From assembly GCA_041496545.1 (NCBI GenBank), contig JBGQET010000007.1, positions 5,424-69,423 of the forward strand: a stretch of 64,000 nucleotides of DNA, in the 5' to 3' direction. Made by a program: the position numbers and the translations under genes. The notes under the pieces were generated by a model, which made no database searches, was not told the DNA's origin, and worked only from the letters and a program-made list of their open reading frames with translations. The DNA comes from Candidatus Binatia bacterium. GTDB lineage: Bacteria; Desulfobacterota; Binatia; DP-6. Below are positions 44,521 through 55,868 of this stretch, piece after piece (within the stretch, counting starts at the first letter, position 1; each line of letters begins with the position of its first letter).

Positions 44521-44922
44521 ATGGGGATGGGTCGGATGTGGCGATGGGGACTGGCGAGCGCGCTGCTGGCTGCGCTCGCCGTCAGTTGCGGGCCGACGTC
44601 GAAGAAGTCGCCCTTCCACGACGAGTCGAAGGATGCGCCCGAGCTCTCGGCCGTCCACCTGCGGGACGGCTTCGACGGGGCCTCGGTGGTCGACCTCCTC
44701 GGCCCGCAGGAGAAGGGTGCCGTGGAGCGCTCGGGGATGTCCTTCGGCGCCGATCCGGACGGCCCTCCCGGCGCGCCGCCGCGGAGGAACGTCTCGGCCG
44801 ACGACGACGAGCCGAAGACCGGCTTCGGCCGCGCCATGGACACCGCCGGCAAGGTCGGCGTGACCCTGCTCGGCGTCGGCGTGTCGGTTGGTGCCGTCGT
44901 GGCGCCGTTCTTCCTCTTCTAG
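44521..44922 (+). CDS. Small lipoprotein, hypothetical
   Basis: It has a lipobox (LAALAVSCG) and a hydrophobic C-terminus. Confidence 0.55.
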   Translation: MGMGRMWRWGLASALLAALAVSCGPTSKKSPFHDESKDAPELSAVHLRDGFDGASVVDLLGPQEKGAVERSGMSFGADPDGPPGAPPRRNVSADDDEPKTGFGRAMDTAGKVGVTLLGVGVSVGAVVAPFFLF

Positions 44923-46146: not shown

Positions 46147-47955
46147 ATGGAGCGCCTGACTCGTAACACCGCGCTCGGCATCGCCGAAGGCGAGGATCGC
46201 GGGGCGTCGGCCGGCGACCGGTCGCCGGCCGCGGCGCCCTTCGTCGGCAGGCGCGACGATCGTCGCATGCTCGACGCGGCGCTCCGCGCCGCGATCGGCG
46301 GCGAGGGCCAGGCCGTGCTCGTGGCCGGAGAGCCGGGAAGCGGGAAGAGCCGCCTGCTGGCCTGGCTCGGGGACCGGGCGAGCGGTCTCGGCGCGCGTGT
46401 CCTGAGCGCCCAGTGCCTCGGCGGCCCGGCCGAACCGCCCTACTGGCCCTGGATCGAGATACTGCGGACCTACGCGCGCCAGGTGCCGCCCGATGCCGTC
46501 CGATCGGTCTTCCGCGGCGCTGCCGGGCGGCTCGCCCCGCTCGTGCCCGAGCTCGCCCAGCTCCCCTCGGACCCGAGCGACGCCTGGGGCGACGGCGAGG
46601 GCCTCTTTTGGCGGCTCGACGCCTTCGGCGGCTCGCTCCGTCAGGTGGCGCTCGCAGACCCCCTCGTCATTCTCATCGAAGACCTCCACCTCGCCGACAC
46701 CCCCTCGCTCCTGGTCTTCGAGTGGGTGGCCCGGGAGATCGGCGACGAGCGCTTGCTTCTGGTCGCGACCTACCGCGACTGCGACGTCGGCCCGCAACAC
46801 CCGCTGTCGGACACGCTGACCGAGCTCGTCCGGCTGCCGCGATTCGATCGCCTGGTGCTGTCGCCGCTCACACGCGAGGACGTCGGCGACTATCTCGCGC
46901 TTCTGACGGGCACGAGCCCCGCGGCCGCCGCGGTGGATGCGATCTACGCCTACACCGCGGGCAATGCGATGTTCGTGAGCGAGGTCGCCCGCCAATCGGT
47001 ACGGGAGCGGCTCCCGCTCGGCGCCCAGGACTGCGCCTCGCGTGCCGTGCCGCTCGCGATCCGCGATTTCGTCCGTGGACGGATCGGGCGGCTGCGGACG
47101 TATTGCACGCGCGTGCTCACGGCGGCAGCCGTGATCGGCCGGCAATTTCCGCTCACCCTGCTCTGCGAAGTCCTCGCCCAGCCCGAAGACGACGTCATCG
47201 AATCGCTCGAGGAGGGGCTCGCCCTGCAGCTCGTCGCGCGCGACGCCTCAGCCCCGGGCCACTATCATTTTGCCGCCCCCGTCCTGCACGCCGCCATCCT
47301 GGGCATGATCCCCCCGAGCCAGCGCGCCCGGCTCGAGCGGCGCTGCGCCCGACTGGTCGCGACTCCCGACGATGCGACGAGCCCGGCGCCGTGCGACCCT
47401 CAAGCCGCCGTCATGCGCCGCGACGGCGAATTCTGGACCATCGTGTTCGCGGACACCGTCATGCGACTGCGCGACTCGACCGGCCTGCGGTGCCTGTCGC
47501 ATCTGCTGCGTCACCCGGGCCGCGATCTCCTGGCGCTCGACGTGGCGGTGCTGGCGAGCGGGAACGGCACCGAGGCGGTCGCGGAGCGCGCGGGCGGAAC
47601 GGTGATCGATGCCCGCGCGCGCGATACGTACAAACAGCGGATCCGGGAGCTCGAAGCCGAAGCCGGCGAAGCCGAGCGCTGCAACGATTTCGACCGCGTG
47701 CGCCGGGTCCGAACGGAGCTCGATTTCCTCCTCCGAGAGCTCGCACACGGGCTCGGCCTCGGCAACCGGATGCGCACCCACGTGGGTCCGGCCGAGCGCG
47801 CACGGATCAACGTGACGCGCACCATCAAGACGGCGATCAAGAAGATCACCGCCGCCGACCCCCGGCTCGGCCGCCACCTCACCGCCACGGTCCATACGGG
47901 CGTCTACTGCTCGTACAACCCGGATCCGCGACTGCCGATCGCCTGGACCTCCTGA
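46147..47955 (+). CDS. AAA_16-type P-loop ATPase (STAND/MalT-like N-terminus) with no recognisable output domain
   Basis: It has Walker A (GEPGSGKSRLL) and Walker B (LVILIEDLHLAD). The C-terminal 300 aa could not be assigned. Confidence 0.75.
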   Translation: MERLTRNTALGIAEGEDRGASAGDRSPAAAPFVGRRDDRRMLDAALRAAIGGEGQAVLVAGEPGSGKSRLLAWLGDRASGLGARVLSAQCLGGPAEPPYWPWIEILRTYARQVPPDAVRSVFRGAAGRLAPLVPELAQLPSDPSDAWGDGEGLFWRLDAFGGSLRQVALADPLVILIEDLHLADTPSLLVFEWVAREIGDERLLLVATYRDCDVGPQHPLSDTLTELVRLPRFDRLVLSPLTREDVGDYLALLTGTSPAAAAVDAIYAYTAGNAMFVSEVARQSVRERLPLGAQDCASRAVPLAIRDFVRGRIGRLRTYCTRVLTAAAVIGRQFPLTLLCEVLAQPEDDVIESLEEGLALQLVARDASAPGHYHFAAPVLHAAILGMIPPSQRARLERRCARLVATPDDATSPAPCDPQAAVMRRDGEFWTIVFADTVMRLRDSTGLRCLSHLLRHPGRDLLALDVAVLASGNGTEAVAERAGGTVIDARARDTYKQRIRELEAEAGEAERCNDFDRVRRVRTELDFLLRELAHGLGLGNRMRTHVGPAERARINVTRTIKTAIKKITAADPRLGRHLTATVHTGVYCSYNPDPRLPIAWTS

Positions 47956-48189
47956 CGCGAGGGTCTGGGTACCTAGAACCCTCTCCGGTGGAACGTCCGT
48001 CCGCCGCCCGGCCGCGGCACCGCGCGGCCACGGCGATTTCCTGGGCCTCCTGACGCCCTACGGCAGCGCGCGGGTACGTACGAGCGGGATCCCGGCGAAC
48101 ATCCGTTCCTTCCGGGCGAACTCCAGCAGGGTGACAGGGATCTCACTGGTGGGACCCGGGCTGGGCCCAAGGGCCCGAAGGATAAAGCG

Positions 48190-49074
48190 ATGAACCGCAT
48201 CCGATACACTATCGCGGCCATGGTCGGGTTCCTGGTGACCGCGCCCATGGCGACCGTCTACACGGCGGGTCCGCCGACGGTGAGCAATTTCTCTATCGCG
48301 GACGTCACCAACGGCGGTGTCCTGACGGAGGTGGACGGAAGCCACGGGGTGCCGGGCGACGTCGTGCGAGTCGGCTACGTGCAGCGGAACTTCAACGAGG
48401 GCGTCCCCGGCGCCGCGACCGACCCGTTTGCGTGGTGCGCCTGGAAGAACGGTGGGAACGAGATCACCCTCGGCTGGGCGACCGTCAACCAGTTCGGCGA
48501 CTTTGCGCTCCCGAATCTGTCGACACAGGTCTATCCGACCAACCCCACCGACGTGTGCGCCTCCGGCTTGATGACACAGATCATCACTCACTCGAATTTC
48601 GGCCCGTCCACGGTGCCCGTCCTGCACTGGCTGAACATTGGCAAGCCCGCGAACGGCATACGGACCGTTGCCGGCTCCATCCAGTACGCCACTCAGGTCG
48701 CGGCGATGGTCGCCGACGGCCCGAAGGACGTCGACGGCGGCGAGAACCACGCGGACCTGAGCACCGACGGCATCGGCGCCGGGCGGCAGGTGAGCTGGAA
48801 GGGGAACGGCGGCACGTTCCAGTCGCCGACCTGCAACGTGGTCGATGAAACGAACATCGGGTCTCCGACGCAGGAGTTCCCCTTCATCGTCGGCAAGCTC
48901 GTCGGCCACGCGCCCGGCGGCTCGGTGCTGGCGATCGCCAAGGGAACTCGACCGGCACTGCGGAATCCGCAGACGATCTACGTCAAGGTGAACATCAAGG
49001 GTCTCCCGGGATGCGGCGGGGGCGGGTTCGGCAGCGGCGCCGGCCTCCTCGGCAGCATCTTCAAGTTCCTCTAG
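48190..49074 (+). CDS. Secreted hypothetical protein
   Basis: It has a signal peptide and lower GC, and it ends Gly-rich (GCGGGGFGSGAGLLGSIFKFL). Confidence 0.6.
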   Translation: MNRIRYTIAAMVGFLVTAPMATVYTAGPPTVSNFSIADVTNGGVLTEVDGSHGVPGDVVRVGYVQRNFNEGVPGAATDPFAWCAWKNGGNEITLGWATVNQFGDFALPNLSTQVYPTNPTDVCASGLMTQIITHSNFGPSTVPVLHWLNIGKPANGIRTVAGSIQYATQVAAMVADGPKDVDGGENHADLSTDGIGAGRQVSWKGNGGTFQSPTCNVVDETNIGSPTQEFPFIVGKLVGHAPGGSVLAIAKGTRPALRNPQTIYVKVNIKGLPGCGGGGFGSGAGLLGSIFKFL

Positions 49075-49136
49075 CCGTCGCGCGGGAACCGGCGTCCATG
49101 TGGCCGCCGGTTCCCGCCCTACTGGAGAGCCATCCC

Positions 49137-50993
49137 ATGTATCCTCACTTCCCCGTGATTCAGCTACACGCGATCGGCACGCTGGTCCGCATCGAGTCCT
49201 ACCCGGCGGCCCACGTCATCGGGCTTCTGGTCCTCGTCGTGATGACGCTCCGCCTCTACGCACGCGACGTCCGCCCGACAGCCACGCTACTCGATCCGTT
49301 CCTCTTCGGCGTCCCGGCCGCGATGCTGGGTGCGAGCGTCCTGGGGTCGCTCACGGCGGGGACATGGCTCCCCGAGCACCTCTCGCTCGCCCCGTCGGTT
49401 CTGTGGACGGGCCACCGGTCCGCGTACGGCGGGTTGCTTGCGGGCGTGGCCGTGGCGGCGCTCGTCGCACGACTCCGACGGATCGACGTCTTGTGCTTCC
49501 TCGATGCGGGCGCGCCTGGCCTGGCCTTCGCGACCTGCTGCGCCCGCATCGGCTGCTTTCTCGGCGGCTGCTGCTACGGCCTTCCTACCGCGTCGGTGCT
49601 GGGCGTGCGCTTTCCCGACGGCCACCCGGGGATGGCAAAGCTCCTGCCCGGTGATCCACGCGGCCTCCATCCGACGCAGCTCTATCTGGCTGCCGCCGCG
49701 CTGGCGATCGGGCTCGTCCTGCTTGCGCTCCGTCGCCGGCAGTGGGGCCGACCCGGACATCGCTTCGCGCTCGGCGCCGCGCTCTACGCCGCTACGACGT
49801 TCGCCGTCGAGCTCCTGCGGGACGACCCGGGCCGCTGGTTCGCCCTCGGCCTCTCCCACACGCAGTGGATCAGCATCGCGATCGTGCTGGCGACGGCCGT
49901 GGTTCTCGGGCGCTCGCCGCGCTTCGCCCGCCGCCGGACGCCCGCGGTCGCCGTCGGTCTTCTGCTGGTCCTCGCCACGACTCCGGCGCGCGCCCAGAGC
50001 GCCGACGACGCGTTCAACGCCATCGCGGAAGGCCTCGTCACCCGTAACCCGACCGCTTCCGTCCTCGTCGCCCAGCTCCTCGAGCTGGGCGGCGGCGGCC
50101 CGCTCACCACTTGGGCGCGGATCGCCAAAGGCGCCGACGGGCTGCTCCAGGGCGACCTCGGGGGCGCGATCGCGCAATGGCAAGCGGCGGCCGCCGCGGA
50201 CCCCGGCACGGCGTGGAGCGCCCAGGCCGACCTCGCGCTCGGCCTGGGGTACATGATGGCCGGCGCCCGCGGCGGGGCCGCGGATGCGCTGGCGGCCGCC
50301 GCCGAGCACGGCGAAGGTGACACGGTCGCGTACGCGGAGGTGTCACTCGGCCGGCTGCAAGCCGTGGCGGGGGACTACGCCGGCGCCGAGCGAAGCTTCC
50401 GACGCGTGTTCGAGGACTACTCCGCCGTCGGAGTTGCCGACGACGCCGCCCTCGGCCTCGCCAAGAGCCTCGTCGCCCAGGACCGACGCGCGGAGGCGCG
50501 CGAGGTGCTCGCCGTTGCGCACGGGCGCTACTGGCATCGCGGGGCGTACATGGTCGCGCGGCGCAACCGGCCGCTTCCGTTCGACCAGGTGGGCAGCCTC
50601 ACGCCCGCGCAGCTCGGGGAGGCGCTCAGGGCGCGCGCCGCCGGCGCGGCCACCCGCGGCGTCTTGCCGATCTACGCCGTGCTCGCGGCGCTGACCGATC
50701 ACTACTCCGGCCCGGACCTCGAGCGGCTCCGTCACCAGATCGCCCGCGCGCCCGGGGCGACGTCCGACCGACCGGCGGCGGCTGCCGTGGTCCAGGCTCG
50801 AGCGGTCGAGCCGGGCGCCGCATCGCAAGCGAGCTCACGCGGGCACTCCACGCCGCGACCACTCGCAGCCGGTCACCGGCAAGGGTTCGGCCGCGTGGCG
50901 GTCGCGTTGCTCGCCCTCGTCGCCACGACCGTAGCGTGGCTGCGCCGGGCCCGCCGGGGTGGACAACCGGGGCGCGGCGCGGTCTACCGATAA
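49137..50993 (+). CDS. Prolipoprotein diacylglyceryl transferase (Lgt)-like membrane domain fused to a C-terminal TPR-like domain
   Basis: Lgt signatures are present (ARIGCFLGGCCYG, HPTQLY). An Ala-rich TPR-like tail ends in a transmembrane segment. Confidence 0.7.
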   Translation: MYPHFPVIQLHAIGTLVRIESYPAAHVIGLLVLVVMTLRLYARDVRPTATLLDPFLFGVPAAMLGASVLGSLTAGTWLPEHLSLAPSVLWTGHRSAYGGLLAGVAVAALVARLRRIDVLCFLDAGAPGLAFATCCARIGCFLGGCCYGLPTASVLGVRFPDGHPGMAKLLPGDPRGLHPTQLYLAAAALAIGLVLLALRRRQWGRPGHRFALGAALYAATTFAVELLRDDPGRWFALGLSHTQWISIAIVLATAVVLGRSPRFARRRTPAVAVGLLLVLATTPARAQSADDAFNAIAEGLVTRNPTASVLVAQLLELGGGGPLTTWARIAKGADGLLQGDLGGAIAQWQAAAAADPGTAWSAQADLALGLGYMMAGARGGAADALAAAAEHGEGDTVAYAEVSLGRLQAVAGDYAGAERSFRRVFEDYSAVGVADDAALGLAKSLVAQDRRAEAREVLAVAHGRYWHRGAYMVARRNRPLPFDQVGSLTPAQLGEALRARAAGAATRGVLPIYAVLAALTDHYSGPDLERLRHQIARAPGATSDRPAAAAVVQARAVEPGAASQASSRGHSTPRPLAAGHRQGFGRVAVALLALVATTVAWLRRARRGGQPGRGAVYR

Positions 50994-51035
50994 AAATTGC
51001 TCGGCGCGCCGAGGATCGCTAGGCACCGGTACCTC

Positions 51036-52589
51036 ATGCGGATCCTGCTCATCGCTCCCCGCAATCCCGAGTCCTTCTGGACCTGGGACCGCATCCTGCC
51101 GACGATCGGCACGCGGTGCTTCTTCCCCAACCTCTCGCTGCCGACGGTGGCCGCGCTCACGCCGCCCGAGCACGAGGTCGTCTGCTGCGACGAGAACGTC
51201 GAGCCGATCGACTTCGACGCCGAAGCCGACATCGTGGGCGTGACCGGCTACGTCGTGCACCTGCGGCGCGTCCTGGAGATCGTGGACGAGCTCAAGCGCC
51301 GCGGGCGCTTCGTCGTCGTCGGCGGCCCGGTCGCCTCGCTCTGCCCGGAGCGCTTTCGCGACCGCGCCGACGTCGTGTTCATCGACGAAGCCGAGGAGAC
51401 CTGGCCGCGCTTCCTCCGCGACCGGGCCGAGGGCCGGTGGCAGCACGAGTACCGCATGGAGGAGAAGCCGAGCCTGGAGAACGCGCCGCTCCCGCGCTTC
51501 GACCTGCTCAAGCTCGACCGCTACCGGACGATGACCGTACAGTTCGCGCGCGGCTGTCCCTACAGTTGCGAGTTCTGCGACATCATCGCGATGTACGGGC
51601 GGCGGCCGCGCAGCAAGACGGTCGAGCAGTTGATGCGGGAGGTCGCCGAGCTGGCGCGCCTCGGGGTGCGCAACGTCTTCATCGTCGACGACAACTTCAT
51701 CGGGGACAAGAAGAAGGCCAAGGCGCTGCTCCGCACGCTCGCCGCCTGGCAAGCGGAGCACGGCTACCCGCTCGAGTTCTTCACGGAGCTCTCGCTCAAC
51801 GTGGCGCAGGACGCCGAGCTGCTCGAGCTGCTCCGGGCGGCGCGCTTCACGACCGTCTTCATCGGCATCGAGTCACCGCGCGCGGCAAGCCTCCAGGAGA
51901 CGAAGAAGACGCAGAACCTCCGCGAGGACATGGTGGCGGCCGTGCACCGCGTGCAGGAGGCCGGCATCGAGGTGATGGCCGGCATGATCGTCGGCTTCGA
52001 CCACGACGACGCGGAGATCTTCGACGAGCACCTCCGCTTCATCGAGGAAGCCCGCCTCCCGGTGGCGATGACCGTCATGCTGAACGCCATGCCGCGGACG
52101 CCCCTCTACGAACGGGTGAAGCGCGAGGGCCGCCTGCTCGCCGAGTCGGTGGGCGACTGCTTCACGCTCACGAACATCGTGCCGCAGAGGATGTCGCTGC
52201 TCGCGCTGTACGAGGGCTACCAGCGCCTCCTGCGCACGCTCTACGACTACGACACGTATCGGCGCCGCGCGATGGCGCTCGTCCTCGCCAAGGGGCGCGA
52301 CGTCCGCACGCGGTCGCTCGCGGGCTGGCGCGACCTCCCGCTCTTCTTCCGCCTCCTCTGGACGTGCGTGCTCGGCGCCTCGCGCGACTACCGGCGCATG
52401 ACGCTCGCCATGATGGGCGAGACCGCCCGGCGCCGTCCCGAGCATCTCCGTCTCGCGGCCGCGCTCGCCCTCAAACACAAGCACCTGCACGGCTACGTGC
52501 AAGACGTCTCGGCGCAGCTCGACGGCGCCATCGCGGAGCTGCGTCGGGCGTCCGAAGGGGCGGGGGCACTGCGGCAGGCCGTGTCCTGA
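51036..52589 (+). CDS. B12-binding domain radical SAM protein (class B rSAM, DUF4070-type C-terminus)
   Basis: It has an N-terminal cobalamin-binding domain and the CPYSCEFCD rSAM cluster motif. Confidence 0.85.
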   Translation: MRILLIAPRNPESFWTWDRILPTIGTRCFFPNLSLPTVAALTPPEHEVVCCDENVEPIDFDAEADIVGVTGYVVHLRRVLEIVDELKRRGRFVVVGGPVASLCPERFRDRADVVFIDEAEETWPRFLRDRAEGRWQHEYRMEEKPSLENAPLPRFDLLKLDRYRTMTVQFARGCPYSCEFCDIIAMYGRRPRSKTVEQLMREVAELARLGVRNVFIVDDNFIGDKKKAKALLRTLAAWQAEHGYPLEFFTELSLNVAQDAELLELLRAARFTTVFIGIESPRAASLQETKKTQNLREDMVAAVHRVQEAGIEVMAGMIVGFDHDDAEIFDEHLRFIEEARLPVAMTVMLNAMPRTPLYERVKREGRLLAESVGDCFTLTNIVPQRMSLLALYEGYQRLLRTLYDYDTYRRRAMALVLAKGRDVRTRSLAGWRDLPLFFRLLWTCVLGASRDYRRMTLAMMGETARRRPEHLRLAAALALKHKHLHGYVQDVSAQLDGAIAELRRASEGAGALRQAVS

Positions 52590-52640
52590 AGGGCTGGACG
52601 TCCCGGGCCGCCCCGGTCTAGAGAAGGAGCCGAGGCGGCC

Positions 52641-53825
52641 ATGCGACGCATCGTGATCGGGCTCGTGCTCGCCTGTTTGGCGGCGCCCGCCATCGCCCAC
52701 GAGCGGGTCGTGCACCTGAAGGTCGGCCCGTTCTGGGTCCCCGCCAAGCGCGACCGCGAGGTGTGCGAGGCGCTGCGCATCCCGCGCGTGGCCGGGATGG
52801 ACGTCGTCAGCTTCGAAGCCCGCTCGCGCACCGGCAACGGCGTCGGCTCGCACCACTTCGTCGCCTACGCCTACCGGGGCGCGAACAGCGCCGCCTTCCC
52901 GAAGGGCATCGTCGACGACCCGGGCTGCAACGGCTTCGGACCCTCCGACTTCTTCACCACCCGCGGCTTCATCGCCGGCTCGGGCGGCGAGTACCAGCGC
53001 GGGCGCTGGCTCATCACGCGCGGCGGCTTCCCGGACGGGCTCGCGCTGCGCATGTCCGGCCCCGCCGACGCGCCGCGCGACACCTACGTCGTCCTCAACT
53101 CGCACTACTTCAACGACAACCCGACCCGGCCGGGCCGCGCGCTCGTGCGTCTCACGCTGCGTCTCGCGCCCGCCGACCCGCGAAAGCGCGTGCTCCGCAT
53201 GCTGACCGAGGTGACCGCCAGCCGCGACATCTTCGTCCCCCCGGGCGGGACGGCGACCGTCGAGGCGACCTGGCAGGCCGACGGGCGGCCGAACCCGGGC
53301 ACCGAGGGCGCCGCCAACCCGGCCCGCGACGTCTGCCTTCTCTACCTCGGCGCCCACATGCACAAGCGCGGCCGGCGCTTCCTCCTCACCTACGAGGAGG
53401 ACGGCAAGCCGCCCCAGGAGATCCTCGACGTGCGCGACTATCTCCATCCCGGCATCGCGTACTTCGGCCGCGGCCGCTTGCTGCACGCGTACACGGCGGA
53501 GAACGGGCACCCGCGGTTCCGCTACGCTTGCACGCACGAGAACGGCGCCGAGGGCGTGCCCCTCAAGCTCGGCTGCGAAGCGACGCCCGGCGTCGTTCCC
53601 GGGCTCAAGTGGACGGACGCCGAGGCGCGCGGCATCTCGCCGCTCGACGCCCACGCGCGCCCGTGCGGCGCGGGCGGCGTGAACTGCGCCGGCGAGCCCT
53701 GCGTCGCGGCCAACCTCGTCTTCGGCCCGCTCTCCGACGACGACATGTGCGTGCTGCCCGGCGCACTCTACGACCCGCTGCCCGGCGTGCCGCCCGAGCA
53801 AGCGTGCAACCCCTTCGGCTTCTGA
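52641..53825 (+). CDS. Secreted copper type II ascorbate-dependent monooxygenase homologue (PHM/DBH-like) with all ligand positions intact
   Basis: It has a signal peptide. The copper-ligand motifs align with PHM (see the corresponding finding). Confidence 0.75.
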   Translation: MRRIVIGLVLACLAAPAIAHERVVHLKVGPFWVPAKRDREVCEALRIPRVAGMDVVSFEARSRTGNGVGSHHFVAYAYRGANSAAFPKGIVDDPGCNGFGPSDFFTTRGFIAGSGGEYQRGRWLITRGGFPDGLALRMSGPADAPRDTYVVLNSHYFNDNPTRPGRALVRLTLRLAPADPRKRVLRMLTEVTASRDIFVPPGGTATVEATWQADGRPNPGTEGAANPARDVCLLYLGAHMHKRGRRFLLTYEEDGKPPQEILDVRDYLHPGIAYFGRGRLLHAYTAENGHPRFRYACTHENGAEGVPLKLGCEATPGVVPGLKWTDAEARGISPLDAHARPCGAGGVNCAGEPCVAANLVFGPLSDDDMCVLPGALYDPLPGVPPEQACNPFGF

Positions 53826-53839
53826 CGAGGAGCGCGACC

Positions 53840-54364
53840 ATGCAGCGCCGGATCCGTCTCGCCTGTCTCTCGGCCGTCGCCCTGCCGGCGCTCGCCTTCG
53901 CCGGCGGCTTCAACAAGACGTACCTCGTGCCCGCGTTCCTCGGCTGCGCCGGGCCCGCCACCTGCGCACCGCAGCGCGAGTCGCTCTACCGCTTCGACTC
54001 CGCCGTCCTGCGCAACTCCGCGTCGCGCTTCCTCGTCCCGGGCAAGGTTGCCTTCATGTTCGAGATCAAGGGCGTGCGTGACGGGGGCGGAAACCTCGTC
54101 ACCACCAACACGGCCGACCGCAGTGACGACTTCAAGCTCGTCTCGATCCCGGGCCAGATCACGATCACGGGCCTCGGCACGTTCCCCGCCGACGCCATTC
54201 CCGAGGTCGTCCTGCCGCTCGACCTGAAGAACGGCGCCGGCAAGCTCTCGTTCAAGACCCCCGAGGCGACGCCGCCCGGCCTCGTCTCCGACGGCGGCGG
54301 CATCGTCGTCCTCGACAACCAGGGCAAGCGGCTGGCGGTCGTCGGCGCGATGTCGAAGCCGTAG
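53840..54364 (+). CDS. Secreted hypothetical protein
   Basis: It has a signal peptide (LACLSAVALPALAFAG) and lies 15 nt downstream of the monooxygenase-like gene. Confidence 0.6.
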   Translation: MQRRIRLACLSAVALPALAFAGGFNKTYLVPAFLGCAGPATCAPQRESLYRFDSAVLRNSASRFLVPGKVAFMFEIKGVRDGGGNLVTTNTADRSDDFKLVSIPGQITITGLGTFPADAIPEVVLPLDLKNGAGKLSFKTPEATPPGLVSDGGGIVVLDNQGKRLAVVGAMSKP

Positions 54365-54374
54365 CGGTCGGCCG

Positions 54375-55868
54375 CTACTCGGCGAACGCGCCCCCGGAGC
54401 GGCCGGCGACGCCGCTCGCCTTCAGCTCGCGGGCGAGCGTCTCGGCGAGCGTGCTGTGGTACCGGCCGTAGGAGAAGTAGAGGACGAGCCCGACCGCGAG
54501 CCAGACGAGCAAGCGGAGCCAGTTCTCGGGGCCGAGGTAGCACATCAAGCCGAAGTTGCTCAGGATGCCCAGGATGGGGACGAGCGGGACGAGCGGCGTG
54601 CGGAAGGGTCGGGGCAGCTCGGGGTGCGTGCGTCGCATCACCAGGACCGCGAAGCACACGATGACGAACGCCATCAGCGTGCCGATGTTTACCAGCTGGG
54701 CGAGGATCGTGAGCGGGAAGAGCGCGGCGACGGTGGCCACCAGGACCCCGGTGAGCGCGGTCGCCTTGTGCGGCGTCCGGAAGCGCTCGTGGACGGCGGC
54801 GAAGAAGCTGCGCGGGATGAGGCCGTCGCGCGCCATGGCGAGCAGGATGCGGGCCTGGCTCAGCAGCAGCACGAGGAGCACGCTGGTGAGGCCGATCACC
54901 GCGCCGGCCGAGATCAGGTACTTGGCGACGTTCAAGCCGCGATCGCCGAAGGCGTGCGCCACCGGCGCGTCGAGGTTGATCTGGTGGTACGGCACCATGC
55001 CGGTCAGCACCGCGGCGACGAGGATGTAGAGGACCGTGCAGAGCCCCAGCGAGGCGAGGATGCCGATCGGCACGTCGCGCTGCGGGTTGCGTGCCTCCTC
55101 GGCGTGGGTGGAGACCGAGTCGAAGCCGATGTAGGCGAAGAAGATGTACGCTGCACCCTTGAAGACGCCCGAGTAGCCGTAGGGCAGGAACGGGTGCCAG
55201 TTCTCCGGCCGGATGTAGCGCCAGCCGACGAAGATCACGAACAGCACGACGACGAGCTTCAAGACCACCATGGCGGCGTTGAAGGTCGCGCTCTCGCGGA
55301 TGCCGACGACGAGGATCACCGACACCGCGAGCACGACGAGCGCCGCCGGCAGGTTGCAGTAGGCGCCGGTCACCTCGAGGGCGTGGGTCGCGGGGTTGAA
55401 GTCGATCGGGTTCCCGATCCAGCGCGCGGGAAGCTGGATCCCGAAGAGCTCGAGGAGCGCGATCAGGTAGTGCGACCAGCCGTGCGCCACCGCGCTCGAC
55501 GCGACGGCGTACTCGAGGATCAGGTCCCAGCCGATGATCCAGGCGAACAGCTCGCCGAGCGTCGCGTAGGCGTAGGTGTAGGCACTGCCGGCGACGGGAA
55601 CCATCGACGCGAACTCGGCGTAGCAGAGCCCCGCGAACGCGCAGGCGCTGCCCGCGACGATGAACGACAGCACGAGCCCCGGCCCGGCGTACTGGTTGGC
55701 GGCGAGCCCGGTCAGCACGAAGATGCCGGCGCCGATGATGGCGCCGACGCCGAGGGCCGTCAGCGTGATCGGGCCGAGGACGCGCCGCAGCCGGTGCTCG
55801 CCGGCGAGCTCCGCCAGCAGGACCTCCACCGGCTTGACCGCGAAGAGCCCACTCGGCGCCGCCATCAC
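54375..55868 (-). CDS. APC-family amino acid permease (cationic amino acid transporter type)
   Basis: It has 12–14 transmembrane helices and an APC signature region. Confidence 0.85.
   Translation of the reverse strand: MMAAPSGLFAVKPVEVLLAELAGEHRLRRVLGPITLTALGVGAIIGAGIFVLTGLAANQYAGPGLVLSFIVAGSACAFAGLCYAEFASMVPVAGSAYTYAYATLGELFAWIIGWDLILEYAVASSAVAHGWSHYLIALLELFGIQLPARWIGNPIDFNPATHALEVTGAYCNLPAALVVLAVSVILVVGIRESATFNAAMVVLKLVVVLFVIFVGWRYIRPENWHPFLPYGYSGVFKGAAYIFFAYIGFDSVSTHAEEARNPQRDVPIGILASLGLCTVLYILVAAVLTGMVPYHQINLDAPVAHAFGDRGLNVAKYLISAGAVIGLTSVLLVLLLSQARILLAMARDGLIPRSFFAAVHERFRTPHKATALTGVLVATVAALFPLTILAQLVNIGTLMAFVIVCFAVLVMRRTHPELPRPFRTPLVPLVPILGILSNFGLMCYLGPENWLRLLVWLAVGLVLYFSYGRYHSTLAETLARELKASGVAGRSGGAFAE

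Follow-up and report, generated by a model that had tools for sequence, protein, structure and literature searches.

A TPR-fused, R239-less Lgt-like protein is paired with a conserved secreted partner in a Candidatus Binatia bacterium

Introduction

Lgt, the prolipoprotein diacylglyceryl transferase, is viewed as a universal, single-function enzyme and is considered a target for antibiotics. The Escherichia coli enzyme contains seven transmembrane (TM) helices in an N-out/C-in topology and has a signature motif that recognises phosphatidylglycerol; R143 and R239 form a pocket activating the C3-O bond, and R239 was called the most conserved residue (PMC4728403). E. coli Lgt has an absolute requirement for Y26, H103, R143, N146, G154 and R239 (PMC13251419), R239 being described as essential in both studies (PMC4728403; PMC13251419). 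Here, we analysed a window of 64,000 nt from Candidatus Binatia bacterium (GCA_041496545.1, contig JBGQET010000007.1; approximately 72% G+C), in which an Lgt-like protein fused to a TPR domain, hereafter Lgt-TPR (618 aa, 49137-50993, plus strand), is encoded directly downstream of a gene for a secreted protein of 294 aa (48190-49074, plus strand), hereafter the partner.

Several departures from the E. coli sequence have been described. Firmicutes and Actinobacteria naturally carry Y or W at the position of H103, and distant Lgts carry C in place of N146 and C or D in place of E151 (PMC13251419). Low activity is presumed for MSMEG_5408, the second Lgt homologue of Mycobacterium smegmatis, which carries N146C, and a different acyl substrate or mechanism was suggested by the authors for a subgroup lacking both R143 and R239; none of the Cys-variant homologues has a demonstrated activity, and the function of the distant ones is unknown (PMC13251419).

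A preliminary description of the window had placed Lgt-TPR, a B12-type radical SAM enzyme encoded next to it and a PHM-like copper monooxygenase in one modification cassette. This was not borne out, because synteny splits the interval 48190-54364 into three independent units: the partner and Lgt-TPR, the radical SAM gene, and the PHM-like gene with a 174-aa protein. What survives of that description is the view that the Lgt-like gene is an atypical, specialised copy probably serving a secreted protein, and the product of the upstream gene is put forward here as the partner. On balance, we favour a locus made of three independent units, in which Lgt-TPR is a non-canonical enzyme derived from Lgt, dedicated to the co-encoded secreted partner and docking it through a periplasmic TPR domain.

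Results

Lgt-TPR combines an Lgt-family core with a TPR-like extension

The presence of an Lgt-family membrane domain in 49137-50993, as given in the preliminary description, was confirmed by both sequence and fold. The Pfam model LGT (PF01790) matched residues 17-257 of the 618-aa protein with 111.3 bits against a cut-off of 24.9, and the start at 49137 agreed with the N-termini of orthologues. The 7-TM domain covers residues 1-258 (49137..49910, plus strand), as defined by PF01790, phmmer and a Foldseek comparison with E. coli Lgt (PDB 5azb). Using phmmer, Lgt-TPR matched this protein with an E-value of 0.0065. An AlphaFold2 model built from seven family members had a mean predicted local distance difference test (pLDDT) score of 64, with values of 50-86 in the Lgt core. 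The best PDB match of this model in Foldseek was again 5azb (E 8.6e-4, target-normalised TM-score 0.60, 290 columns). The remaining top matches were TPR proteins: LGN, APC/C subunits, designed consensus-TPR proteins, LapB and MamA, the last with a target-normalised TM-score of 0.71.

The extension of about 330 aa, which had been described as Ala-rich and TPR-like with a terminal TM segment, was likewise recovered. Ala accounts for 24% of the C-terminal half (71/294 residues), and residues 289-537 (50001..50747, plus strand) were modelled as a TPR-like helical-repeat domain of about ten paired helices with a pLDDT of 70-95. The score of the Pfam model TPR_19 in the window protein was below threshold (20.0 bits vs 25) and NCBIfam TPR models gave weak matches (YbgF, BamD); the aligned region of the orthologue P0016 scored 45.4 bits with TPR_19 and 37.9 bits with TPR_16, for which the cut-off is 32.7.

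Two additional TM helices frame the TPR domain. Helix 8 (residues 268-287; 49938..49997, plus strand) connects the Lgt core to the TPR domain and was modelled by AlphaFold2 as a helix at residues 268-281; it is preceded, after TM7, by the Arg-rich loop GRSPRFARRRTPA, which contains five Arg. Helix 9 (residues 583-606; 50883..50954, plus strand) is separated from the TPR domain by a linker modelled with low confidence and is followed by the basic tail RRARRGGQPGRGAVYR with six Arg. Given the N-out/C-in topology of the seven helices of Lgt, the Arg-rich loop and tail and the positive-inside rule, the TPR domain is predicted to be periplasmic and tethered to the membrane at both ends. It would then sit on the same side of the membrane as the Lgt active site.

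Lgt-TPR proteins form a small family with an altered active site

To compare active sites, 96 standalone Cys-variant relatives and 7 Lgt-TPR members were aligned to E. coli Lgt. The two motifs reported in the preliminary description as the Lgt signature, HPTQLY and GCFLGGCCYG, are both present; the second is a Cys variant and not the canonical GRLGNFINGELWG. In the window protein it reads R137-I-G-C140-F-L-G-G-C145-C146-Y-G148 (49545..49580, plus strand) and it is invariant in the Lgt-TPR family, the E. coli counterpart being R143-L-G-N146-F-I-N-G-E151-L-W-G154. The phosphatidylglycerol-recognising motif G142-RLGNFINGELW-G154 is therefore replaced by A-RIGCFLGGCCY-G. This type of substitution extends beyond the family, RxGCFxxGC[CD]xG being present in nearly all of the 150 best database matches. 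More than 115 of them, standalone or extended Lgt-like proteins (P0029-P0163), carry it in place of the canonical motif and have kept R143 and R239.

Lgt-TPR proteins and their standalone relatives share most of the changes and most of the conserved positions. In E. coli numbering, both groups keep Y26, D129, R143, G145, G150, G154, H196-P-x-Q-L-Y, Y235, E243 (or D) and R246, and both have mostly Y at H103 and Cys at N146, E151 and L152. The difference lies at R239, which is Arg in 96/96 standalone relatives and T, V, S or I in every aligned Lgt-TPR member; in the window protein the equivalent position is T221 (codon 49797..49799, plus strand), and the more distant members P0017 and P0027 have A or T. 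E202 is replaced by L or T in the Lgt-TPR family (L in the window protein). Three of the six residues absolutely required in E. coli are thus kept (Y26, R143 and G154) and three are substituted (H103 by Y, N146 by C and R239 by T). The change of H103 to Y was rejected as a sign of inactivity, Y and W being natural variants at this position in bona fide Lgt.

Despite these substitutions, the core of the family is strongly conserved. R137, C140, C145, C146, D123, H178-P-T-Q-L-Y, Y217, E225 and R228 are invariant in sequences sharing only 35-50% identity, the overall identity of family members to the window protein being 44-66%, which argues for a working catalytic site and not for decay. An additional invariant loop specific to the family, D-x-G-R233-W-F, follows just after R228 and could supply a replacement for the Arg lost at R239. 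The missing R239, together with three Cys along the signature motif, suggests that the donor lipid or the chemistry probably differs from the canonical transfer from phosphatidylglycerol to a lipobox.

Searches of large protein collections indicated that the family is very small. The Lgt-TPR query returned 8 clusters at E<=1e-5 among 5.8 billion clustered proteins; the contigs of six of these relatives were inspected for neighbouring genes. A HMMER search of 1.84 billion representatives gave 8779 matches at E<=1e-3, of which 15 reached E<=1e-30 and corresponded to the Lgt-TPR family and fragments of it; below these 15, scores dropped from about 130 to about 110 bits, a range occupied by generic Lgt-like proteins, most of 240-300 aa. 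Lgt-TPR did not reach any NCBIfam Lgt equivalog cut-off (38.9 vs 118.9 for TIGR00544, 109.9 vs 334 for NF000778, all others lower). Public cluster annotation names the protein 'phosphatidylglycerol:prolipoprotein diacylglycerol transferase'. A second subfamily of long Lgt-like proteins (466-690 aa) was also recovered; it has GCD[YF]G, keeps R239 and E202, and carries Pro-rich extensions that are not of the TPR type. The Cys variant of Lgt was already known and, as judged from these alignments, it is the combination of R239 loss with a TPR fusion that is specific to the small Lgt-TPR family.

A conserved secreted partner is encoded upstream of Lgt-TPR

Seven other Lgt-TPR loci from at least four lineages were examined; five were readable as DNA, one was available as gene calls only, and one held a partial open reading frame (ORF) at a contig end. 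In L017/L018, L019/L020, L021 and JGI 3300045391, Lgt-TPR is immediately preceded by a co-oriented gene whose product of 277-294 aa has no match in Pfam; L017 carries this gene in two tandem copies. Where the DNA was readable, the upstream proteins were 35-47% identical to the product of 48190-49074, and alignments A1 and A2 gave identities of 33-47% between the partner and the upstream genes of L017 (two copies), L019, L021 and P0010-14. A frameshifted copy of the partner was detected by tblastn upstream of Lgt-TPR in L106. In JGI 3300043331, a partial ORF cut by the contig end abuts the Lgt-TPR gene and is consistent with the partner. A radical SAM or PHM-like gene adjoined Lgt-TPR in none of the other loci examined.

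The partner is as rare as the protein encoded next to it, and the two-gene module is confined to a small number of Binatia-type lineages. A single-sequence word search retrieved the partner itself alone, and its relatives were only reached with a profile search, which returned 7 clusters, the named ones all being from Binatia. The partner had no match in Pfam (even at E<=1 and with all five homologues), NCBIfam, PHROGs or PADLOC. Its AlphaFold2 model was poor (pLDDT 46.6), with an N-terminal half resembling an Ig-like beta-sandwich; a Foldseek search of the PDB with this model found nothing significant, the best E-value being 8.5e-3 for generic Ig-like domains.

Sequence features of the partner indicate an exported protein. 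Residues 1-26 form a signal or anchor segment made of a basic start and a hydrophobic stretch, and are followed by the conserved motif P-x-A-x-[VI]-[YH]-T-[AS]-x-x-P. The motif G-H-x-P-G-G-S is invariant across the homologues. Alignments of the homologues revealed neither a conserved Cys in or after the signal segment nor a lipobox of the type [LVI][ASTVI][GAS]C. A conserved Cys is found at the other end of the protein, where C275 is followed by a short hydrophobic tail rich in Gly and aromatic residues, CGGGGFGSGAGLLGSIFKFL (49012..49071, plus strand). The tails of the relatives are of the CNGGFFxL[WF] or CGNKFFDFLG type, and every one of the nine full-length homologues examined has a Cys at 8-19 residues from its C-terminus; P0012 has two further Cys nearer the C-terminus. 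The number of Cys outside the signal segment is odd in 8/9 homologues, so at least one free thiol should exist in those proteins. We considered a sorting signal of the PEP-CTERM or GlyGly-CTERM type and rejected it as a matter of judgement, most tails being too short to span a membrane and lacking a basic cluster.

In four other loci, a putative regulatory signal was recorded near the partner gene. A sigma54-type -24/-12 element, GGCACG-N4-TTGCT, precedes the partner gene by 44-81 nt in L017, L019, L021 and L106 (approximate positions L017:8168-8183, L019:4962-4977, L021:1729-1744 and L106:530-545). These elements match 10-11 of the 12 consensus positions, a score equalled by shuffled sequences in 2-62 of 5000 trials. 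A sigma54 activator gene is found directly upstream in L017 and nearby in L021. The corresponding region of the window (47956-48189) contains no sigma54-type site, its best match of 8/12 being reached in 3160/5000 shuffles.

The locus contains five plus-strand genes

Five genes on the plus strand occupy 48.2-54.4 kb of the window: 48190-49074 (294 aa), 49137-50993 (618 aa), 51036-52589 (517 aa), 52641-53825 (394 aa) and 53840-54364 (174 aa). They are separated by gaps of 15-63 nt. The G+C content at third codon positions (GC3) is 0.87-0.96 in the plus-strand frames and 0.69-0.77 in the long antisense ORFs, a contrast which supports the plus-strand genes, and exactly these genes were called in eight public assemblies of the same organism. 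The same locus, encoding identical proteins, is also present in several JGI and Logan assemblies and in two metagenome-assembled genomes (MAGs), GCA_041485145.1 and GCA_041492335.1; for several of the five genes, the closest named relatives are from Candidatus Binatia. The preliminary description had suggested that precursor peptides might be encoded around 48190-49074 and 53840-54364; the flanking ORFs turned out to encode conserved proteins of 294 and 174 aa.

The radical SAM gene belongs to a widespread group with variable neighbours

The identification of the next gene as a class B (cobalamin-type) radical SAM enzyme was borne out. The 517-aa protein (51036..52589, plus strand) has B12-binding (PF02310, 42.7 vs 32.1 bits), Radical_SAM (PF04055, 80.9 vs 29.5) and DUF4070 (PF13282, 71.3 vs 22) domains, and its CxxxCxxC motif is CPYSCEFC at residues 174-181 (C174, C178 and C181; window 51555-51578). 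The most likely start is the ATG at 51036 and not the TTG at 50997: gene calls in eight assemblies begin at the ATG, the alignments with orthologues start at residue 1, and an exact look-up of the protein starting at the TTG found nothing. With no TM helix or signal, the protein is predicted to be cytoplasmic. No SPASM or RiPP (ribosomally synthesised and post-translationally modified peptide) recognition domain scored above threshold in Pfam or NCBIfam. No NCBIfam equivalog threshold was reached either; the best score was with the PhpK family (102 vs 600), and matches to HpnR and HpnJ were far under their cut-offs. Public annotation calls this protein 'YgiQ (UPF0313)', a name which is wrong given that the YgiQ model scores far under its cut-off (E 0.0025, 16 bits vs 462).

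A scan of one genome per GTDB species identified at least 488 relatives, and the best 80 loci, from 80 species, were analysed. These orthologues are 46-67% identical to the window protein over essentially their full length and come from Binatia, Acidobacteriota/Thermoanaerobaculia, Myxococcota, Gemmatimonadota, Methylomirabilota and others, so that the group spans at least five phyla. A six-frame ORF search covering 10 kb on each side found a homologue of Lgt-TPR, the partner, the PHM-like protein or the 174-aa protein in 0/80 of them. Neighbours varied, the commonest neighbour family occurring in 14/80 loci. The preliminary description had allowed that the radical SAM might belong to an unrelated pathway, and the 80 loci place it in an unrelated, widely conserved group; judged by this synteny, the enzyme is functionally unrelated to its neighbours in the window.

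Other contexts of the radical SAM gene were recorded. In a mostly Myxococcota subset (L058, L060, L072, L083, L086, L090, L092 and L095), the order is class-III aminotransferase, LuxE, LuxC, radical SAM, Rrf2 and SufBCD. The succession of aminotransferase, LuxE, LuxC and radical SAM genes hints at acyl-chain chemistry, in an arrangement that is lineage-specific. The Pfam lists of the 21-kb neighbourhood contained no hopanoid genes, and a tblastn search of plasmid records for annotated HpnP returned only generically named B12 radical SAM proteins of at most 50% identity.

The PHM-like gene forms a separate conserved pair

The 394-aa secreted PHM-like protein (52641..53825, plus strand) is encoded by the first gene of a separate pair, the second being the gene for the secreted 174-aa protein (53840..54364, plus strand). 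No relative of the PHM-like protein was present in the genome-collection contig scan; the metagenome collection contained two, with 65% and 56% identity (L102 and L103). A homologue of the 174-aa protein is encoded directly downstream in both loci (131 bits in L102 and 106 bits in L103), the pairs being located at L102:10001-11682 and L103:2385-4083, and neither locus has a radical SAM or Lgt gene upstream of the PHM-like gene.

The earlier assignment to PHM-like copper monooxygenases was examined at the level of sequence. The His/Met ligand pattern is conserved, H71, H72, H155, H239, H241 and M369 being invariant in 3 homologues (59-66% identity), but there is no sequence match to the Cu2_monooxygen families or to PHM/DBH structures. 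Pfam and NCBIfam gave no match, and neither phmmer nor a 3-sequence profile found one among PDB sequences. The PHM-like label is drawn solely from the HH...H...HxH...M pattern.

The three units sit side by side in one species, as far as the loci compared here indicate. The arrangement of a RiPP-like cassette, as proposed in the preliminary description, was absent from the other Lgt-TPR loci, from the 80 radical SAM loci (0/80) and from the two PHM-like loci (0/2).

Composition, signals and neighbouring genes

A step in GC3 was observed along the locus, from 0.87-0.89 in the partner, Lgt-TPR and an AAA_16 gene further upstream (46147-47955) to 0.95-0.96 in the radical SAM, PHM-like and 174-aa genes. 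This step agrees with the division into units and is consistent with different origins or expression levels. A scan of 47800-54500 for sigma70 promoters and terminators returned no promoter, and terminator-like sites on the minus strand only. The 42-nt gap between Lgt-TPR and the radical SAM gene (50994-51035) contains an AT-rich island, ATAAAAATT, and a perfect GC palindrome, CTCGGCGCGCCGAG; its terminator-like score was also confined to the minus strand.

Upstream of the partner gene, 46147-47955 (plus strand) encodes an AAA_16 ATPase of 602 aa, which partially matches a TOMM kinase/cyclase fusion model (88.9 vs 705.75) and has no recognisable DNA-binding domain. It was rejected as a part of the module, not being kept upstream in the other Lgt-TPR loci. 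The identity of the locus as a defence system was also rejected, the sole PADLOC match being a weak, generic radical SAM. Further upstream, a 128-aa protein (44536-44922, plus strand) begins with MGMGRMWRWGLASALLAALAVSCGP, a canonical lipobox signal. The organism therefore produces lipoproteins of the ordinary kind, and a conventional Lgt activity is to be expected somewhere in it.

Discussion

The repeated pairing of Lgt-TPR with one secreted protein, the conserved and altered active site and the predicted side of the TPR domain can be brought together in the following way. The partner would be exported via its N-terminal signal. The periplasmic TPR domain would then capture it, most plausibly by the conserved C-terminal Cys and aromatic tail; TPR domains commonly bind C-terminal peptides. 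Finally, the Lgt-like core would either transfer a lipid group to the partner or hold it at the membrane. Since Lgt forms thioethers, the conserved and probably unpaired Cys near the C-terminus, C275 in the window protein, would be the most likely site of attachment. The topology, the docking of the partner by the TPR domain, the lipid transfer and the site of the acceptor are all steps that we infer.

Several points weigh against this proposal. The partner has no recognisable lipobox, and its link with Lgt-TPR consists, in the loci compared, of adjacency alone in about four independent lineages. At a pLDDT of 46.6, the fold and the Cys pairing of the partner remain tentative, and in the window the partner has an even number of Cys (4). 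The loss of R239 could mean that the Lgt-TPR core is catalytically dead. As for the independence of the units, all five genes share a strand, are spaced 15-63 nt apart and show no plus-strand terminator, and the three units may be co-transcribed in this organism.

The best surviving alternative, to which we give a minor but real chance, is that Lgt-TPR is a pseudoenzyme. The Lgt-like core would then act as a membrane scaffold, receptor or chaperone and transfer no lipid; the TPR domain would bind the partner, and the old lipobox cleft would perhaps hold its signal-anchor. The loss of the essential R239 and of E202 fits this view, as do the missing lipobox Cys of the partner and the conserved motif that follows its hydrophobic segment, where we see no good -3/-1 signal-peptidase site, cleavage being in this case a matter of judgement. 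What speaks against a pseudoenzyme is the invariance of many active-site residues and of the D-x-G-R233-W-F loop, a pattern typical of a working catalytic site.

A bolder possibility, slightly less probable again, is that the pair represents a previously unknown route of protein lipidation or sorting. The TPR domain would bind the aromatic tail, and a lipid would be attached to the near-C-terminal Cys or to a non-Cys residue of P-x-A-x-V-Y-T-A. The reaction would be independent of R239 and perhaps rely on a membrane-embedded Cys triad, the whole forming an Lgt-derived C-terminal or non-lipobox pathway.

It is improbable that Lgt-TPR is a housekeeping prolipoprotein diacylglyceryl transferase with an accessory extension, next to an unrelated upstream gene. 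The PF01790 match and the public name would agree with such a role. H103 to Y and the Cys substitutions of N146 and E151 occur in distant proteins regarded as Lgt (PMC13251419), the lipobox protein at 44536-44922 needs an Lgt activity somewhere in the genome, and no second lgt gene lies within the 64-kb window. However, a family found in only 8 clusters among 5.8 billion proteins, and in 15 of the 8779 LGT-type matches, is far too rare to supply Binatia with their essential Lgt, and its scores are far below every NCBIfam Lgt equivalog cut-off. R239 is absent although all 96 close standalone relatives kept it, and the gene is strictly paired with one particular secreted protein.

The least probable reading by far, in which a single secreted or lipidated substrate is processed in turn by Lgt-TPR, the B12 radical SAM and the PHM-like copper enzyme, could draw on the close spacing of five same-strand genes (15-63 nt) with no plus-strand terminator detected and on the two small to medium secreted proteins flanking the enzymes, but it is largely refuted by synteny: the arrangement occurs only in near-identical MAG or metagenome copies of one species, it recurs at no other Lgt-TPR locus examined and is missing from the 80 radical SAM and the two PHM-like loci, the radical SAM is predicted to be cytoplasmic when the proposed substrates are exported, it has no SPASM or RiPP-recognition match, and GC3 differs between the units.

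Lipidation of the partner by a dedicated Lgt-derived enzyme outside the lipobox rule, if it occurs, would require both the prediction of lipoproteins and the catalogue of bacterial protein lipidation to be widened. Otherwise, the present analysis serves as a correction, namely that the radical SAM and PHM-like genes are not to be read together with Lgt-TPR.

Comparison with known systems

The architecture of Lgt-TPR has an analogue in eukaryotes. The TMTC O-mannosyltransferases are polytopic, use a lipid-embedded donor and carry TPR domains on the non-cytoplasmic side that recruit protein substrates. The likeness is an analogy of architecture only, the TMTC proteins having a GT-C fold and Lgt-TPR an Lgt fold, with no homology between them.

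For the neighbouring radical SAM, the closest described system is HpnP, the hopanoid C-2 methylase, which has the same B12-binding/radical SAM/DUF4070 architecture; HpnP-like clades are uncharacterised (PMC10697835). The window enzyme differs from HpnP in having no equivalog-level match, no hopanoid genes nearby and orthologues in variable contexts.

Lgt-TPR shares with E. coli Lgt (5azb/5azc) the PF01790 domain, the 7-TM fold and residues Y26, D129, R143, G154, H196-P-x-Q-L-Y, Y235, E243 and R246, and its active site is expected to face the periplasm in the same way. It differs by its signature, RIGCFLGGCCYG in place of RLGNFINGELWG, by the substitutions of H103 by Y, E202 by L and R239 by T, and by the addition of about 330 residues comprising the TPR domain and the TM helices on either side of it. 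Moreover, Lgt is universal, whereas Lgt-TPR is extremely rare and has a fixed genetic association with a single secreted protein, which lacks a lipobox.

Long C-terminal extensions are not restricted to the Lgt-TPR family, as the Lgt core of Mycobacterium tuberculosis Lgt (Rv1614) also carries one (PMC13251419). The long relatives of 466-690 aa recovered here, with GCD[YF]G, R239 and E202 kept and Pro-rich extensions, belong to a separate family. Among the Cys-variant homologues, MSMEG_5408 and the subgroup described in PMC13251419 have in common with Lgt-TPR the changes of N146 to C and of E151 to C or D. The nearest of the Cys-variant relatives are mostly standalone proteins of 240-300 aa with R239 in all 96 aligned, whereas Lgt-TPR keeps R143 and loses R239. 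Unlike these homologues, Lgt-TPR has a TPR fusion, predicted to be periplasmic, and a dedicated partner gene. Cys-substituted or Arg-less Lgt homologues have been described before; a family combining R239 loss, a TPR fusion and a dedicated partner gene has not. Compared with the other divergent homologues, this family comes with an adjacent gene for a candidate dedicated substrate and with a substrate-recruiting domain in the enzyme itself, through which the function of divergent Lgt homologues would become testable with two genes.

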